In this document: in pieces, positions 1,252-39,167 of the stretch
Layout of the letters: each line of letters starts with the position of its first letter
How positions within the stretch are numbered: position 1 is the stretch's first letter
DNA from: Patescibacteria group bacterium
GTDB taxonomy: Bacteria; Patescibacteriota; UBA1384; 2-12-FULL-50-11
DNA length: 39,167 bases
Assembly: GCA_041477655.1 (NCBI GenBank)
Contig: JBGOUP010000001.1
Span: forward strand, 1 to 39,167
Direction: 5' to 3'
Notes under the pieces: model-generated
Database searches by the model: none
What the model was told of the DNA's origin: nothing
Seen by the model: only the letters and a program-made list of their open reading frames with translations
Position numbers and translations under genes: made by a program

Positions 1252-1506
1252 ATGATCGAAACTAAAGAAGCCATCGGTGAACCAGTTAAGGTTATTGTTA
1301 GTTTTTCACCAGGTAAAATTCGTCTGCATTTTTTTGAGTGGCAGAGTCGGACTTACAGGGTTGAATCAATGAATCTTTTCCATATTGCCAAAGACGCCGA
1401 CAAGCATCTCTACCATTTTTCCGTTAGTTCTGATGGTAACAGTTATGAGCTGGTTTTTGACCCAACCACCCTGACTTGGCAGTTAGAGGAGGTGGTGAGT
1501 GCTTAA
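1252..1506 (+). CDS. Hypothetical 84-aa protein, first clear gene of the putative SOS-controlled dinB operon
   Basis: ATG preceded by AGGAAAG. Not low-complexity. No family recognised. Confidence 0.55.
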   Translation: MIETKEAIGEPVKVIVSFSPGKIRLHFFEWQSRTYRVESMNLFHIAKDADKHLYHFSVSSDGNSYELVFDPTTLTWQLEEVVSA

Positions 1507-1743
1507 AAAACTCGAAACTCGAAATCCGGCCATTCGACAGAGCTCCGGCCGCCTCGAGCAAAGTCGTCTTTCGACATCGCTCAAGACGACCATGAGCCCA
1601 TCGAATGGTCGAGAGGCGAAATCCGAAACGGTTCGATCAACTCACCGTCCTGAGTGCAATCGAAGGACAAGCTCAAAATTTAAATTTTTGAACTTAGAAC
1701 ATTGGAATTTGTTTAGAGTTTCGGGCTTCGAATTTCGGATTTT
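1505..1743 (+). repeat. Palindromic element R1 filling the gap between the 84-aa ORF and dinB. It is open in one frame (ORF 1499..1750).
   Basis: Imperfect terminal inverted repeats: aaaaactcgaaactcgaa at the 5' end versus ttcgaatttcggatttt at the 3' end, about 15 of 18 positions. GC-rich core with stems gtcgtctt/aagacgac and ccattcga/tcgaatgg. The AT-rich arms share words with 2158..2296 inside dinB. Confidence 0.55.
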
Positions 1744-1746
1744 AAA

Positions 1747-3213
1747 ATGAGCCAAAGGATCATTTTACATCTGGACGTCAATTCTTATTTCGCAACAATG
1801 GAGCAACAGGCATATCCTAATTTAAGAGGTAAGCCGATAGGAGTGGCGGGAAAGGATGAGCGGATGTCTGGGAGACATTCGCGAACGGAAGCTCCGAAAA
1901 GCGGCATAATGTCTTTTGGCCGCTTTGCAGGAGCGAGTGGAGGCGAGCGAACAGTAGTGGCCGGAGCTTCAATTGAGGCCAAAAAGTTTGGTGTCAAATC
2001 GGGTATGTCCAGCTGGGAAGCCCGGAAACTCTGTCCGGGAATTATTATCGTCGCCGCCAATTACGATCGCTACATCTTCACTAGTAAACGAATTTTTTCT
2101 TTGATGGAACGCTTCAGCCCAACGGTGGAGGTTTTTTCCATCGACGAAGCCTTTCTAATAATAAACTCTAAGCTCGAAACTCTAAGCTCTAAACAAATCC
2201 AAATGCTTAAAAATCAAATTTACAAAAATGATTCGGATTTTGAAAATTGGAATTTGAAATTTGTTTCGAACTTAGGATTTAGTGCTTCGGATTTTGCCTA
2301 CCTTCAGGCTATTGATATTGCCGTACAATTAAAGCAACTGATCAGGACACATATCGGCTCTTGGGTGAGCGTTTCTATCGGTATTTCTTATGGCCGAACT
2401 CTAGCTAAGCTAGCTTCAGAGCTACAAAAACCCGACGGCCTAACGGTTATTAAACCTGAAGATTTCGCTCGGATCGCTAAAACAACGCCAATCGAAGAGC
2501 TCTGCGGTATTGGCTATCGCCTCCGACCACGCCTAAATCAGCTGGGCATTAGCACCATTGCCGAATTAGGTAGCGCTCCAAGAGAAATGCTAGTCAGGGT
2601 CTTTGGCGATTTCACGGGGTCGTGGCTAGCCGATATCGGACGGGGAATTGACGATAATCAGTTACGCTCATTTCGCCAATTACCTCAAGAGAAATCGGTC
2701 GGCCATTCATATACCTTGCCTCACGACTTAGCTTCGATGACCGAAGTTAAAAAAGTCATGTTGCTATTGGCCGAGAGGGTAGGGGTGCGACTTAGACGTA
2801 AAGGTCTTATGGGTAAAACGGTTTCGGTCTACGTTCGCTTTTACGACAAAACTGGTTGGGGCCAGCAAATGGCCATTAAAGATTATTTAATGGACGGATT
2901 GGCTATTTATAAAGTTGGAGCCGAACTACTAGACTTAATCATCCAGCCCAAACCCGTTCGCTTGATCGCCATTACGGTTAGCGATTTAGTCACCCAAGTT
3001 CAGACGACCAAGCCGCTTTTTGTAGTTAATCAACGCTACGAGCAATTGGTTGGAGCGATCGATAAAATCAATAATCGTTACGGTGAATTTACGGTTTTTC
3101 GGGGAGCTCTGGCCAAAATGAAACAGCGTATCTTCAAACTACCCGATGGTCGTAACAAACGACACTATCTGCCGGAAATTACTCACATTAATCCGTTTAC
3201 AAAGAGGGTGTAA
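1747..3213 (+). CDS. dinB: Y-family DNA polymerase IV (DinB) with two extra internal segments
   Basis: LHLDVNSYFATME, SIDEAFL and ISYGRTLAKLASELQKPDG motifs. 488 aa versus about 350-400 aa typical. ATG overlaps the upstream ORF stop (ATGA). Confidence 0.9.
   Translation: MSQRIILHLDVNSYFATMEQQAYPNLRGKPIGVAGKDERMSGRHSRTEAPKSGIMSFGRFAGASGGERTVVAGASIEAKKFGVKSGMSSWEARKLCPGIIIVAANYDRYIFTSKRIFSLMERFSPTVEVFSIDEAFLIINSKLETLSSKQIQMLKNQIYKNDSDFENWNLKFVSNLGFSASDFAYLQAIDIAVQLKQLIRTHIGSWVSVSIGISYGRTLAKLASELQKPDGLTVIKPEDFARIAKTTPIEELCGIGYRLRPRLNQLGISTIAELGSAPREMLVRVFGDFTGSWLADIGRGIDDNQLRSFRQLPQEKSVGHSYTLPHDLASMTEVKKVMLLLAERVGVRLRRKGLMGKTVSVYVRFYDKTGWGQQMAIKDYLMDGLAIYKVGAELLDLIIQPKPVRLIAITVSDLVTQVQTTKPLFVVNQRYEQLVGAIDKINNRYGEFTVFRGALAKMKQRIFKLPDGRNKRHYLPEITHINPFTKRV
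2158..2296 (+). repeat. Palindromic element R2 inserted in frame in dinB (about aa 139-186)
   Basis: Inverted repeat ctaagctcgaaac (2168..2180) / gtttcgaacttag (2263..2275), 12/13 complementary. AT-rich. Shares the words ctcgaaact, attggaatttg, gaacttag and ttcggatttt with R1. Confidence 0.6.
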
Positions 3214-3494: not shown

Positions 3495-3765
3495 GCCCCT
3501 CCTAGCGGTGGAATTTGATAATGAGTGGTCATCCCCGAATGAATCTTCCCGGGCTCCCGCCCAGGGTATCTTCTTCTTCACTCCGCACTGCCGTGCTTGG
3601 CAAAGCGGCGAGGGCTCTCATCCACTGGCTTTGGCCCGTGGTATTCTCGCTAAGAATAAAGATGTTTTCAACGGTTATTCTCTTCTGTTTTAGCGTGCTA
3701 GGGGGTAGGAGGTTGAGGAAGGGGGAACGCTTCGCAGTAGATCCCCCTTCCTCGCATAATATCTC

Positions 3766-3788
3766 TTGACAAGTTCGGTATTTGTTCG
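3766..3788 (+). promoter_or_regulatory. Candidate LexA operator plus TTGACA upstream of lexA (TTGACAaGTTCGgtatttGTTCG)
   Basis: Near-identical copy of 1024..1046. An autoregulatory position for lexA is expected. Confidence 0.6.
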
Positions 3789-3819: not shown

Positions 3820-3965
3820 GTGGTGAATATATTTCTTGAGCGGTCGTCTCGCAGACTTGCCAGCTTGGTTTCCGAGCCTTGCGAGGAATGGCAAGTCGAG
3901 AGCGAGTAGTCGATCTATCTCTGGAATAGATCGACTACGTACCGATGAAGAAATATATTCACCAC
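3820..3965 (+). repeat. 146-nt element in the lexA leader closed by a perfect 18-bp inverted repeat
   Basis: gtggtgaatatatttctt (3820..3837) pairs with aagaaatatattcaccac (3948..3965). Two internal hairpins: gacttgcca/tggcaagtc (3854..3897) and gtagtcgatcta/tagatcgactac (3906..3938). The 3' arm ends 1 nt before the GAGGAGG Shine-Dalgarno (SD) sequence. Confidence 0.6.
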
Positions 3966-3976
3966 GAGGAGGAACA

Positions 3977-4573
3977 ATGCTCACACCTAAACAAAAACTA
4001 ATTTTAGATTTTATAGATTCATTTATTAATGATAACGGCTACGCGCCTAGTTATCGGGAGATTGCTGAAAACTTTGGCTTTTCGTCGGTGGCAACGGTGG
4101 CCGAACATATTGATAATTTAAAAAACAAAGGCTACTTAACTAATTCTGATTCTGGTTATCGTTCTATCCAGCCAATTGAAGTAGAGGCCGGTAATGCCCT
4201 AATGAATTTGGTGGTGCCACTGCTTGGCGCCATCCGAGCTGGCAAACCAATCGAAGCCATCAAGACCGATCTGTCACTGGAAGTGCCTCGCGACATGATG
4301 GGTAAAAACGTCTTTGCCCTGCGAGTCCGGGGCGACTCAATGAAAGACGACGGCATTTTAGACGGCGATTTTGTGGTGATTGAGCCCTGCACCAATCCAA
4401 AAAACGGTGATATTGTAGTGGCCTTGATTGACAAAGACAACGTGACCTTAAAGCGATTTTATCGGGAAAAAGATCATATTCGCTTGCAACCAGCTAACGC
4501 CAATTATCAGCCAATCCGGGTTAAGAAAGTTAGTATCCAGGGCCGGGTAAGGGGAGTAATCCGAAAGTTTTAA
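3977..4573 (+). CDS. lexA: LexA repressor (198 aa)
   Basis: Winged-helix N-terminus (YAPSYREIAENFGFSSVATVAEHIDNLKNKGYL), Ala-Gly cleavage region (AIRAGKP), GDSM serine and the LKRF lysine. ATG at 3977 preceded by GAGGAGG. The ORF-track start at 3836 is an upstream extension. Confidence 0.93.
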   Translation: MLTPKQKLILDFIDSFINDNGYAPSYREIAENFGFSSVATVAEHIDNLKNKGYLTNSDSGYRSIQPIEVEAGNALMNLVVPLLGAIRAGKPIEAIKTDLSLEVPRDMMGKNVFALRVRGDSMKDDGILDGDFVVIEPCTNPKNGDIVVALIDKDNVTLKRFYREKDHIRLQPANANYQPIRVKKVSIQGRVRGVIRKF

Positions 4574-5087: not shown

Positions 5088-5233
5088 TCTTGAGAAAAAT
5101 GGGTTTTGGAACTAGCTCTTGAGAAAGTTCCGTTTTGGAACTATCACATGAGACCGTCTTGCTTTGGAACTATCTCTTGAGACAGTTCCGTTTTGGAACT
5201 ATCGCTTGAGACAGCCCCATATTGAGACTATGG
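5088..5233 (+). repeat. Tandem array of about 4.5 units (26-32 bp) of a palindrome-containing repeat, with no spacers
   Basis: Unit consensus tcttgaga(a/c)AGTTCCgttttGGAACTatc. Units at 5088, 5117, 5149, 5175 and 5206, the last degenerate. Starts 1 nt after the AbrB-like stop codon. Confidence 0.85.
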
Positions 5234-5245
5234 TAGGGGCAATCA

Positions 5246-5764
5246 ATGCCACGAGATTTAGACTTTGTTAGGCGCCCTCGCCGAGAATCACCGACGATTC
5301 ATAAACCAAGTCGACAACCGCGTTCAGGCTCGATGGCAATAGCCTTTGTCATAATAATTTTAGTGGTCGGCGGGATTTTAGTCGCTCAATACCTAAGCTC
5401 AAAACCAACCAGCGCCCCAGCATTAAACGCCGGCCAAACGCCAACCACATCTACGACACCACCAACAAATTCAACCACGCCAACTAACCAAACAAAATCT
5501 AGTCAGGCGGTCATTCAAATCTATGATTCCGGTGGAGGGGCTGACGAGCTCAAGAAAGTCAGCGACAGCTTAGCCAAGACCTATCAGATCAAGAACCTTG
5601 GCCCGTCGCAATTCGACTATGACAAAACGTATGTTTGGTATCGCAAAGAGTTTAAGACTGACGCCAACGCCATTGCCAAATTATTGAGCGATCGGGATGT
5701 CTCGCTCAAAGAATCAGAGATTTCCGGCGTATTTGATATCCTGGTTTACGTGGGTAAGAAGTGA
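5246..5764 (+). CDS. Membrane-anchored LytR_C-like domain protein (172 aa)
   Basis: N-terminal TM helix (IAFVIIILVVGGILVA), Thr/Pro-rich linker, and a C-terminal block (VIQIYDSGGGADELKKVSDSL...ANAIAKLL) resembling the LytR/CpsA/Psr C-terminal domain. Confidence 0.5.
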   Translation: MPRDLDFVRRPRRESPTIHKPSRQPRSGSMAIAFVIIILVVGGILVAQYLSSKPTSAPALNAGQTPTTSTTPPTNSTTPTNQTKSSQAVIQIYDSGGGADELKKVSDSLAKTYQIKNLGPSQFDYDKTYVWYRKEFKTDANAIAKLLSDRDVSLKESEISGVFDILVYVGKK

Positions 5765-38753: not shown

Positions 38754-38785
38754 GGCCCATCAGTATAGCTGACGGGCCTTTCTCT
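38754..38785 (+). terminator. Rho-independent terminator of 37826..38734
   Basis: Stem ggcccatcag/ctgacgggcc (one mismatch) followed by tttctcttct. Confidence 0.6.
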
Positions 38786-39167
38786 TCTCTTAGAGAGAAC
38801 CACGGACGTTAGTCCGTGGATGAATCGTACCACTCGTACCACCTCGTCAGAGGTGGTACGTTTTGCTCATGAGAACCCAGAATCTGTCCCATTGCGTCTA
38901 CCAACATCAGTATCACCTTGTTTGGGGGACAAAATACCGTCGGAAGTTTCTCAAGGAGTACGTCAAGGCGGATCTGACAGAGAGCTTCTTTGGCACGGTC
39001 AAACGTCATCCAACGCTCCACATTTTTACCCTCAACGTCGACAACGATCATCTTCACCTCCAGATTGAGATTCCGCCGGATATGCCCGTCTGTGAGGTGG
39101 TTCAGCTTTTGAAACAAAACTCCAGTCGAGCCCTGAAGAAACGTTTTGCCTTCATCCGGCGGATGTA
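38785..39167 (+). mobile_element. IS200/IS605-family element, left end plus the 5' part of tnpA, truncated by the window edge
   Basis: Identical to the reverse complement of 1..140. Hairpins at 38800..38819 and 38836..38859. Confidence 0.88.
38869..39167 (+). CDS. tnpA: IS200/IS605 Y1 (HUH) transposase TnpA, 3'-partial
   Basis: My own frame-1 translation: MRTQNLSHCVYQHQYHLVWGTKYRRKFLKEYVKADLTESFFGTVKRHPTLHIFTLNVDNDHLHLQIEIPPDMPVCEVVQLLKQNSSRALKKRFAFIRRM. It contains YHLVWxTKYRRK and the HUH motif (DHLHL). Not in the ORF track because it runs off the window. Confidence 0.9.
   Translation, partial: MRTQNLSHCVYQHQYHLVWGTKYRRKFLKEYVKADLTESFFGTVKRHPTLHIFTLNVDNDHLHLQIEIPPDMPVCEVVQLLKQNSSRALKKRFAFIRRM

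Follow-up and report, generated by a model that had tools for sequence, protein, structure and literature searches.

Rickettsia palindromic elements (RPEs) are dispersed palindromic repeats of ~100-150 bp that occur in frame in unrelated housekeeping genes (Ogata et al. 2000, 2002, as summarized in PMC10969869). According to the same summary, nearly half of the RPE-1 copies are genic and the mechanism of their mobility is not known (PMC10969869). The intervening sequences (IVSs) in the rRNA genes of Coxiella and Leptospira are sporadic, low-GC elements with a terminal inverted-repeat stem, a variable number of heptameric repeats, and an open reading frame (ORF) for an S23p protein in the loop (PMC4990558). 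IVSs with an S23p ORF are known from Leptospira, Coxiella, and Brucella, and their sporadic distribution suggests horizontal transfer; the hairpins that they form in 23S rRNA are substrates of RNase III, and excision leaves rRNA fragments that are not religated (PMC4990558). Bacterial MITEs (transposable elements of the miniature inverted-repeat type), including enterobacterial repetitive intergenic consensus (ERIC) sequences, QMITE1 of Coxiella, and the MITEs of Anabaena, also fuse in frame with genes (PMC10969869, PMC5896051). Here we examine an AT-rich hairpin element located inside dinB, the gene for DNA polymerase IV (Pol IV), of a Patescibacteria group bacterium from the candidate phyla radiation (CPR). 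The window that we analyzed is the whole 39,167-nt contig JBGOUP010000001.1 of assembly GCA_041477655.1. Fetched loci are labeled L### and protein clusters P####, with P0001 being the window DinB. We conclude, with a probability of roughly 80%, that the element at 2163-2294 belongs, as one copy, to a family of AT-rich hairpins that is very widespread, and that it inserted in a dinB loop and is tolerated there as selfish DNA. The host gene and the element are as follows:

1747-3213, forward strand: dinB (DNA polymerase IV), the host gene, 488 aa, with Pfam IMS and IMS_C domains found on its protein cluster.
2163-2294, forward strand: hairpin element copy B, in frame within dinB, encoding approximately residues 140-183, NSKLETLSSKQIQMLKNQIYKNDSDFENWNLKFVSNLGFSASDF.

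Copy B is a 132-nt imperfect palindrome that adds ~40 residues, including the stretch NSKLETLSSKQIQ...SDF, to the loop after the catalytic SIDEAF motif. GC content is 0.27 at 2151-2300 compared to ~0.45 in the surroundings. The original prediction, made from the letters of the window, had reported AT-rich DNA with a 13-bp inverted repeat at this site. This repeat is present (ctaagctcgaaac at 2167-2179 and gtttcgaacttag at 2262-2274, 12 of 13 positions complementary) and is part of the larger palindrome, the arms of which are 75% complementary over 56 nt. When folded as DNA, copy B reached -17.7 kcal/mol (z = -2.6), with only 1 of 200 shuffles folding equally well. It contains exactly one stop-free frame, which is the frame of dinB. 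At the gathering score, Rfam gave no match and no rRNA gene in the whole window; at E<=10 the only Rfam matches in 1200-2600 were sub-threshold hairpins resembling plant miRNA precursors, which spanned exactly 2163-2294. A scan for tRNA and tmRNA found none.

To place the insert in the protein, we compared the best 120 DinB homologs, defining the loop as the residues from SIDE to the next conserved helix. This loop has 57 residues in the window DinB, 15-22 residues in 110 of the 120 homologs (17 in most), and 38-57 residues in seven; the other three sequences are truncated at the N-terminus. The closest homologs are annotated as Berkelbacteria, Saccharimonadales, or Patescibacteria, with identities of 63% or less. 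In the alignment the catalytic residues are conserved, D133 and E134 being invariant and D10 nearly so. The solved Pol IV structure 7yll_A from the PDB aligns only with DinB residues 3-37, 65-139, and 190-454, leaving residues 38-64 and 140-189 with no counterpart. An AlphaFold2 model built with 112 homologs has a mean predicted local distance difference test (pLDDT) score of 86, with the polymerase core above 90. The insert is modeled at pLDDT 59-80 with helices at 148-160 and 163-167, which fits a lower-confidence, partly helical excursion that would spare the core fold. These comparisons bear out the claim that DinB carries an extra segment where other Pol IV proteins have a short loop, and the model is in favor of the surface-loop position that had been proposed for it.

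Copy B belongs to a family that is dispersed among genomes. We built a DNA hidden Markov model (HMM) of the family from 55 copies that came from unrelated metagenome-assembled genomes (MAGs), none of them from the window or from any dinB locus. This HMM matched copy B at 2163-2294 over its full length (model positions 2-148, 62.8 bits, E=1.9e-18). It also matched the dinB inserts of L006, L001, L002, and L007 (E=6e-14 to 8e-11) and found an intergenic copy directly upstream of dinB in L007. Copy B aligned end to end, loop included, with intergenic copies in other metagenomes at a mean column identity of 75%. Elements of the family are ~130-170 nt long with 27-33% GC and have ends of the form AAAT...ATTT. 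In the arms, 7-8-nt units (AAATYCGA...) are arrayed around a core, AAACAAATTCAAA, and the canonical element reads AAATYCGAAGCACGAAATCCGAAACAAATTCAAATGACCAAAATTCAAAAC-loop-GTTTTGAATTTTGGTCATTTGAATTTGTTTCGGATTTCGTGCTTCGGATTT. Subfamilies have CGAA swapped for CCAA or CTAA in both arms. Several copies sit within larger, unrelated palindromes. On the family alignment RNAalifold predicted only 14 pairs, since the register of the 7-8-nt units shifts. Exchanges of G-C to C-G occur at three of the pairs in 8-10 copies, which is suggestive of a paired structure and no more than suggestive, since those copies may be one subfamily.

We determined how far the family extends using both its peptide and its arms. 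A peptide profile was made from the window peptide and 13 small ORFs; in an exhaustive search of 1.84 billion cluster representatives it matched 5140 protein clusters at E<=1e-3, of which 452 were at E<=1e-10. The bulk of these matches are ORFs of 46-130 aa, that is, intergenic copies called as genes; P0121, flanked by genes for an ABC ATPase and MacB, is an example. A word-indexed protein search returned only 13 small ORFs and no DinB, and is unsuitable for embedded peptides. The 19-mer AATYCSAAACAAATTCAAA from the core of the arms occurs at 120 or more loci in a collection of species-representative genomes. The host MAGs are assigned to Planctomycetota, Desulfobacterota, Acidobacteriota/Aminicenantes, Bacteroidales, Verrucomicrobiota, Patescibacteria, Nitrospirota, Chloroflexi, and Gammaproteobacteria, and two further ones are archaeal. 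Several of the matches are carried by closed chromosomes or contigs that measure 0.5-4 Mb, so that mis-binning does not explain this breadth. A subfamily 20-mer taken from copy B was found at 120 or more metagenome loci.

In IMG/VR, 19 viral or proviral contigs (L130-L148) contain the family 19-mer, and viruses could be a route of spread across phyla. A BLASTN search with a canonical copy against PLSDB plasmids and GenBank phages gave no match, to which the low-complexity filter may have contributed. In the open-access literature we found neither a report of such elements from CPR nor one of IVS-type elements within protein-coding genes, and the characteristic sequence words did not occur. The idea that RPE-like behavior is new for this kind of genome agrees with this lack of a published description; the family itself is not specific to the lineage and spans many phyla.

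Copies of the family also lie in frame inside genes that are unrelated to dinB. We counted a copy as genic when its stop-free frame lies within an ORF that extends at least 80 codons on both sides. By this measure 15 of 164 copies (9%) were genic in 1.03 Mb of fetched genome and viral loci, and 1 of 126 in 0.70 Mb of metagenome loci. With the peptide profile we identified in-frame hosts encoding Wzy_C ligases, GT4 and GT2 glycosyltransferases, a DUF2298 protein, the adenylation domain of a nonribosomal peptide synthetase (NRPS), a HEAT protein, and a class V aminotransferase, from organisms that include Gottesmanbacteria, Wolfebacteria, Omnitrophota, and Ca. Deferrimicrobium. Leucyl-tRNA synthetase (LeuRS), tyrosyl-tRNA synthetase (TyrRS), UvrA, NRPS, and transketolase-like hosts were read from flanking motifs and not from a family search; the LeuRS motifs point to a single Patescibacteria gene that contains two copies. 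Of 167 full copies, 61% have one or more stop-free frames, compared with 16% of shuffles. Together with the full-length HMM match and the protein clusters, these in-frame copies show that copies do exist elsewhere.

The original prediction had also linked the dinB insert to a single upstream element called R1 (1505-1743). Gene order is conserved across loci as an 84-aa ORF followed by dinB and lexA, and R1 occupies the spacer between the first two of these genes. It does contain a full family copy but is not one element, being a composite that is interrupted by an unrelated hairpin:

1252-1506, forward strand: 84-aa ORF preceding dinB, syntenic in L001, L002, L004, L007, L149, and L151.
1505-1528, forward strand: displaced outer fragment of the left arm of copy A, with an inverted 17-mer match to the right end of copy A and a weak HMM hit at 1508-1528.
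1529-1616, no strand assigned: unrelated GC-rich hairpin of 88 nt, lying within the left arm of copy A, predicted stem 1525-1612, GC 0.54-0.55.
1609-1742, forward strand: intergenic copy A of the hairpin element, 4 nt separating its end from the dinB start codon, family HMM E=3.4e-13.

The region 1495-1755 folds with z = -3.9. Repeats D4, I2, and I4 connect copy A to copy B, and local alignment of copy B with the upstream element gave scores of 34 (direct) and 36 (inverted), above the maximum of 26 for shuffles (18.2 +/- 2.2); their predicted similarity is thus beyond chance. The in-frame likeness of their peptides (KLET, MLK, WNL..VS..GF) is likewise present and is a mere consequence of DNA similarity read in the sole stop-free frame of the element. 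The two copies are not nearest relatives, copy B being closer to copies from other metagenomes (score 64 vs 24). The nested hairpin has the core ccattcga...tcgaatgg and is flanked by a 9-bp direct repeat, CGAAATCCG, at 1520-1528 and 1617-1625; it looks like a second miniature element of another family, one that makes a target-site duplication (TSD). The spacer between the 84-aa ORF and dinB measures 0-44 nt where it is empty (L149, L151, L004) and 150-243 nt where it holds hairpin elements. The filled spacers are:

window 1507-1746: same family.
L007 581-823: same family.
L001 3826-4000: a GC-rich palindrome.
L002 9578-9730: a different AT-rich palindrome.

This spacer is the second insertion hot spot of the operon and has been colonized repeatedly.

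Among DinB orthologs the distribution of the insert is patchy. The seven clusters that bear it (P0001, P0002, P0008, P0009, P0020, P0067, and P0114) encode related peptides (NSK.E...KQIQN.KNQ ... FENLNLK.VSNLGF..SDF). All seven inserts are free of stops and keep the host frame, and they fold as hairpins except for the eroded copy of L001. In a neighbor-joining tree that was not bootstrapped, the carriers are interspersed among insert-less relatives, each of them resembling insert-less orthologs more closely than it does the other carriers. P0009 and P0020 are 75-76% identical to several insert-less orthologs vs 64-67% to other insert-bearers, P0067 is 71% identical to the insert-less P0065 and at most 61% to the rest, and P0114 is only ~45% identical to every other DinB. 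Alignment of filled and empty sites at the DNA level revealed two left boundaries. The first lies directly after F-L/V/M-x codons (window, L001, L006, L007) while the second, in L002 and L004, follows LELPAxx at a distance of 15-18 nt from the first; the divergence between filled and empty sites is too great for a target duplication to be recognized. The inserts are of differing unit subtypes (CGAA, CCAA, CTAA), each resembling different free copies. The scattered carriers, the two boundaries, and the differing subtypes together suggest that the dinB loop was probably hit several times independently.

Inserts in dinB also decay. In the clade of the window the copy of L001 has lost its right arm and that of P0008 is eroded further, with the frame kept in both. 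At L152 380-640 (P0084), which is closely related to P0020, the in-frame hairpin has lost one of its 7-nt units; the frame is shifted, leaving dinB as two ORFs, 152 and 319 aa long, and P0086, a related cluster, has the same truncated form. Judging from these sequences, the element makes dinB prone to slippage.

We searched for a parent element as pairs of family arms separated by 300-4000 nt and examined the interiors of a subset of the candidate pairs. Long versions of the family carry, between the left and right arms, a gene of ~120 aa for the four-helix-bundle '23S rRNA intervening-sequence protein' (PF05635 / TIGR02436; S23p, Avd-like):

L095 491-859: PF05635 ORF between family arms, PF05635 3e-14, TIGR02436 7e-21.
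L116 3574-4029: PF05635 ORF between family arms, PF05635 8e-11, TIGR02436 3e-17.

L117, which is disrupted, and L096 were judged to bear PF05635 by inspection of the sequence. The ORF of the long forms starts inside the left arm (ATG ACC AAA ATT CAA AAT TCA AAA CAA TAC GAT..., translated MTKIQNSKQYDLEER). Short copies keep the first codons of this ORF (ATGACCAAAATTCAAAAC) together with their complement, and the short copies thus look like ORF-less miniature derivatives that arose by internal deletion. Copy B retains only an ATG..AAA..CAA remnant of the ORF start. The family is also present in rRNA. The bacterial large-subunit (LSU, 23S) rRNA gene at L166 522-4807 is 4286 nt long compared with 2925 nt for the Rfam model, a surplus of ~1360 nt of insertions, and contains three full short copies:

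L166 905-1041: full short family copy within the LSU rRNA gene.
L166 2153-2284: full short family copy within the LSU rRNA gene.
L166 2613-2740: full short family copy within the LSU rRNA gene.

Beyond these three copies, this rRNA gene has ~960 nt of further insertions. The PF05635 long forms and the short hairpins in a 23S gene lead us to regard the family as a selfish element of the IVS type that is also present in intergenic and, less often, coding DNA.

Against this background the family can be set beside the known systems. Like RPEs, it consists of palindromes of ~100-150 bp in many dispersed copies, with a stop-free frame that encodes a conserved peptide and with in-frame genic insertions that do not destroy the host genes; copy B is a palindrome of 132 nt, the fetched loci hold hundreds of copies, and in-frame insertions occur in unrelated genes. 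However, the hosts are CPR/Patescibacteria and many other phyla and not one alphaproteobacterial genus, and the family differs from RPEs in its lower genic fraction (~9% of copies), in its PF05635 long forms, and in its copies in rRNA genes. By description it would be an analog of RPEs in behavior and not a member. With rRNA IVSs the family shares an inverted-repeat stem, AT-richness relative to the host, variable heptamers, an optional PF05635 ORF in the loop, and a sporadic distribution suggestive of horizontal transfer. The PF05635 / TIGR02436 loop ORF is found in the long members and not in copy B, and location in an rRNA gene is seen for the family at L166 only, copy B being in dinB. Unlike classical IVSs, the family is mostly intergenic, has some copies in protein ORFs, and has an arm sequence that is conserved across phyla. 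In architecture, the nearest relative is the rRNA IVS with an S23p/PF05635 ORF. MITEs are similar to the family in being small, non-autonomous inverted-repeat elements that are mainly intergenic and at times intragenic in frame. Classical MITEs have short terminal inverted repeats, a TSD, and a parent insertion sequence (IS) that encodes a transposase, whereas in this family the whole element is palindromic and no TSD was seen. PF05635 is homologous to Avd, the accessory protein of diversity-generating retroelements (DGRs) (PMC10053308), and the loop protein of the long forms is of the same four-helix-bundle family. Next to the hairpin elements we saw neither a reverse transcriptase nor a template or variable repeat.

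Other candidate classes were tried and set aside. A classical MITE is disfavored because none of 64 copies had a TSD and, among the arm pairs whose interiors were examined, the sole long form found encodes an Avd-like protein and not a transposase. Repetitive extragenic palindromes and bacterial interspersed mosaic elements (REP/BIME), which are associated with REP-associated tyrosine transposases (RAYTs), are 20-40 bp long, GC-rich, and tagged with GTAG or CGTC, as opposed to 130-170 nt, 27-33% GC, and AAAT...ATTT ends for this element. For an intron or another Rfam RNA there was no match at the gathering score, and 44 residues are too few for an intein. We also considered an origin from IS200/IS605 elements similar to palindrome-associated transposable elements (PATEs), prompted by a Y1 transposase gene at the contig end, and found no structural link to the hairpins.

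In the scenario that we favor, a hairpin copy would have inserted, in a transposition-like manner, in DNA for a surface loop just behind the catalytic SIDEAF motif. Translation would then read through the insert, which adds its ~40 residues with the polymerase core intact, because the element is poor in stops and its sole open frame coincides with that of dinB. The dinB insert is probably translated and presumably neutral. With no TSD, no conserved flank, and no linked transposase, we infer mobility from the distribution alone; this is the part of the predicted RPE-like mobile palindrome that stays conditional, while family membership, dispersal, in-frame genic copies, the patchy distribution in dinB, and the link to PF05635 and rRNA genes were all found. 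The checks that had been proposed, on copies elsewhere, DinB orthologs, and structure, all favored the original prediction. One could speculate that long copies, through their S23p/Avd-like protein and possibly together with a reverse transcriptase, mobilize the short copies in trans, and that RNase III cuts the hairpin in dinB mRNA.

Several observations weigh against an inserted selfish element. No TSD, TA/TTAA duplication, or conserved flank was consistent in 64 hairpin copies, and compared with empty sites the insertion in dinB is not clean, with ~12 nt of native loop missing or replaced. No transposase was found between separated arms, PF05635 being the sole cargo in every interior examined; these long forms are rare (~4 of ~290 copies examined), and none of ten mid-length peptide matches that were tested carried PF05635. 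The 39-kb window holds just two copies of the family, and the archaeal 19-mer matches are on MAG contigs of 5-6 kb and are possibly binning errors. When folded as RNA, copy B is barely above shuffles (z = -1.6). Finally, one and the same dinB loop is used recurrently, and the insert-bearing genes share an 'aYL' flank, which may mean transfer of the dinB segment by recombination or a single origin.

The last point leads to the idea of a single ancient insertion followed by precise losses or by recombinational spread of the dinB segment, which would keep the origin from an element and remove dinB as a recurrent target. It would account for the presence of all seven inserts in one loop and for their common aromatic-Y-L/I flank (FAYLQ, FIYLH, YQYLL, CAYLD, KAYLN), where insert-less genes are of the SWED type. 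The window and L004 also share an exact match of 23 nt, with DinB proteins that are 61% identical over trimmed columns (54% by BLASTP), and the neighbor-joining tree that separates the carriers is without bootstrap support. We nevertheless consider this history improbable, since the short, uniform loop in 110 of 120 homologs would require many precise deletions, and since the two left boundaries, the unit subtypes matching different free copies, and the distance of P0114 from all other carriers all speak for separate arrivals. A similarly low standing goes to the proposal that copies A and B are exapted regulatory hairpins acting as RNase III sites, attenuators, or terminators, which keep a mutagenic SOS polymerase low or make it switchable by slippage of the 7-nt units. 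IVS hairpins of 23S rRNA are RNase III substrates (PMC4990558) and the family is present in a 23S gene; copy A abuts the dinB start while copy B lies 420 nt inside the ORF, and the same two-copy arrangement is found in L007. The unit deletion that splits dinB in L152 (P0084), the truncated P0086, and repeated GTTC-N7-GTTC boxes that would place the operon under LexA control are also in keeping with regulation. However, most dinB orthologs have neither copy, related genes show decay (the lost right arm of L001, the more eroded P0008), the RNA fold is unexceptional, and a simple scan calls no terminator-like site at copy A or copy B.

Two further explanations are very unlikely. If the segment were a lineage-specific expansion of the loop, by local duplication, slippage, or retention of an old functional subdomain, it would resemble a repeat through composition alone, as might be expected of low-complexity, AT-rich sequence made of short units that slippage can expand and with just two related copies in 39 kb. 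Such an origin conflicts with the full-length match to an HMM from unrelated genomes, with the ordered end-to-end alignment, loop included, to copies elsewhere, with the same peptide in frame in unrelated protein families, and with the lack of the segment in 110 of 120 orthologs. It is just as hard to credit that the insert is not translated, through intron-like removal, through RNase III excision and religation, or through ribosome bypass as in T4 gene 60 and the mitochondrial 'byp' elements. A compact hairpin right behind a conserved catalytic motif does sit at a site typical of homing elements, and IVS relatives are excised from rRNA (PMC4990558). Yet the seven dinB inserts and the 15 other genic copies are all stop-free and in the host frame, which would be needless if they were removed; where 7 nt are deleted, gene calling gives a split gene, no ribozyme or other Rfam match was found, and IVS excision fragments rRNA without religation (PMC4990558). 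The tolerated insertion of a selfish hairpin remains the reading that we prefer.

The finding extends in-frame 'protein-coding palindromes', held to be a curiosity of Rickettsia, to CPR/Patescibacteria and many uncultivated phyla by way of one family, and gives a concrete origin at the DNA level for some of the unexplained insertions that lengthen CPR proteins relative to their homologs. It also joins two old puzzles, the nature and movement of rRNA IVSs and the role of the very common PF05635/S23p four-helix-bundle proteins. For annotation, it warns that the family hairpin, when translated, accounts for thousands of metagenomic 'hypothetical proteins' of 50-130 aa and that its 7-nt units can shift the frame of real genes, the split dinB of L152 being a case. 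Going beyond the window, we offer a broader proposal tentatively and as a whole, while thinking it doubtful that all of its parts hold together. Classical 23S IVSs may be no more than the conspicuous part of a class of hairpin elements that spans the prokaryotes. The autonomous form of this class would encode an Avd-like PF05635 protein, and ORF-less miniatures would colonize rRNA genes, intergenic DNA, and, in frame, protein genes. The miniatures would be a regular source in CPR of lineage-specific 'extra loops' in DinB, aminoacyl-tRNA synthetases, and UvrA. The mobility factor of IVSs, long sought, would be the PF05635 protein, which in DGRs partners with a reverse transcriptase, and hairpins within ORFs might act as expression switches that are sensitive to RNase III or prone to slippage.

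The window dinB contains another insert that is distinct from copy B:

1855-1950, forward strand: second, different in-frame dinB insert (residues ~38-64), after GVAGK, with two small hairpins and a DNA fold of z = -3.0.

This insert is not present in most DinB orthologs and is unaligned to the PDB Pol IV; residues 43-65 have pLDDT below 50 and are modeled as disordered. At the same site P0005 and P0020 have GC-rich palindromic inserts, GLPATPGLAWRAG (L002 9835-9880). Additional inserts are found at other positions of DinB in P0050, P0062, P0069, and P0100.

The surroundings of the operon contain further repeats. A 24-nt repeat, CTTGACAnGTTCGGTATTTGTTCG, is located at 1023-1046, upstream of the operon of the 84-aa ORF and dinB, and, 96% identical, at 3765-3788, upstream of lexA; it includes GTTC-N7-GTTC, which may be a LexA box in direct-repeat form. 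The ATG at 3977 is probably the real start of lexA. The lexA leader contains a palindromic structure of 146 nt (3820-3965) with 25-nt arms that are 92% complementary and an inner, perfect 13-nt hairpin. The spacer between dinB and lexA is ~760 nt in the window compared with 60-130 nt in L001 and L149, suggesting that it holds more inserted elements. Further downstream, 5088-5249 consists of 5-6 tandem copies of a 29-nt unit, TTTGGAACTATCNCTTGAGACAGTTCCGT, each partly palindromic, upstream of an ORF at 5246. Positions 1-140 of the window are the perfect reverse complement of 38785-38924, and a gene for an IS200-like Y1 transposase (PF01797, E=1e-20) begins at 38869 and is cut off by the end of the contig. 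Two inverted copies of one IS therefore bound the contig. The IS end at the contig termini carries small perfect hairpins, for example at 65-90.

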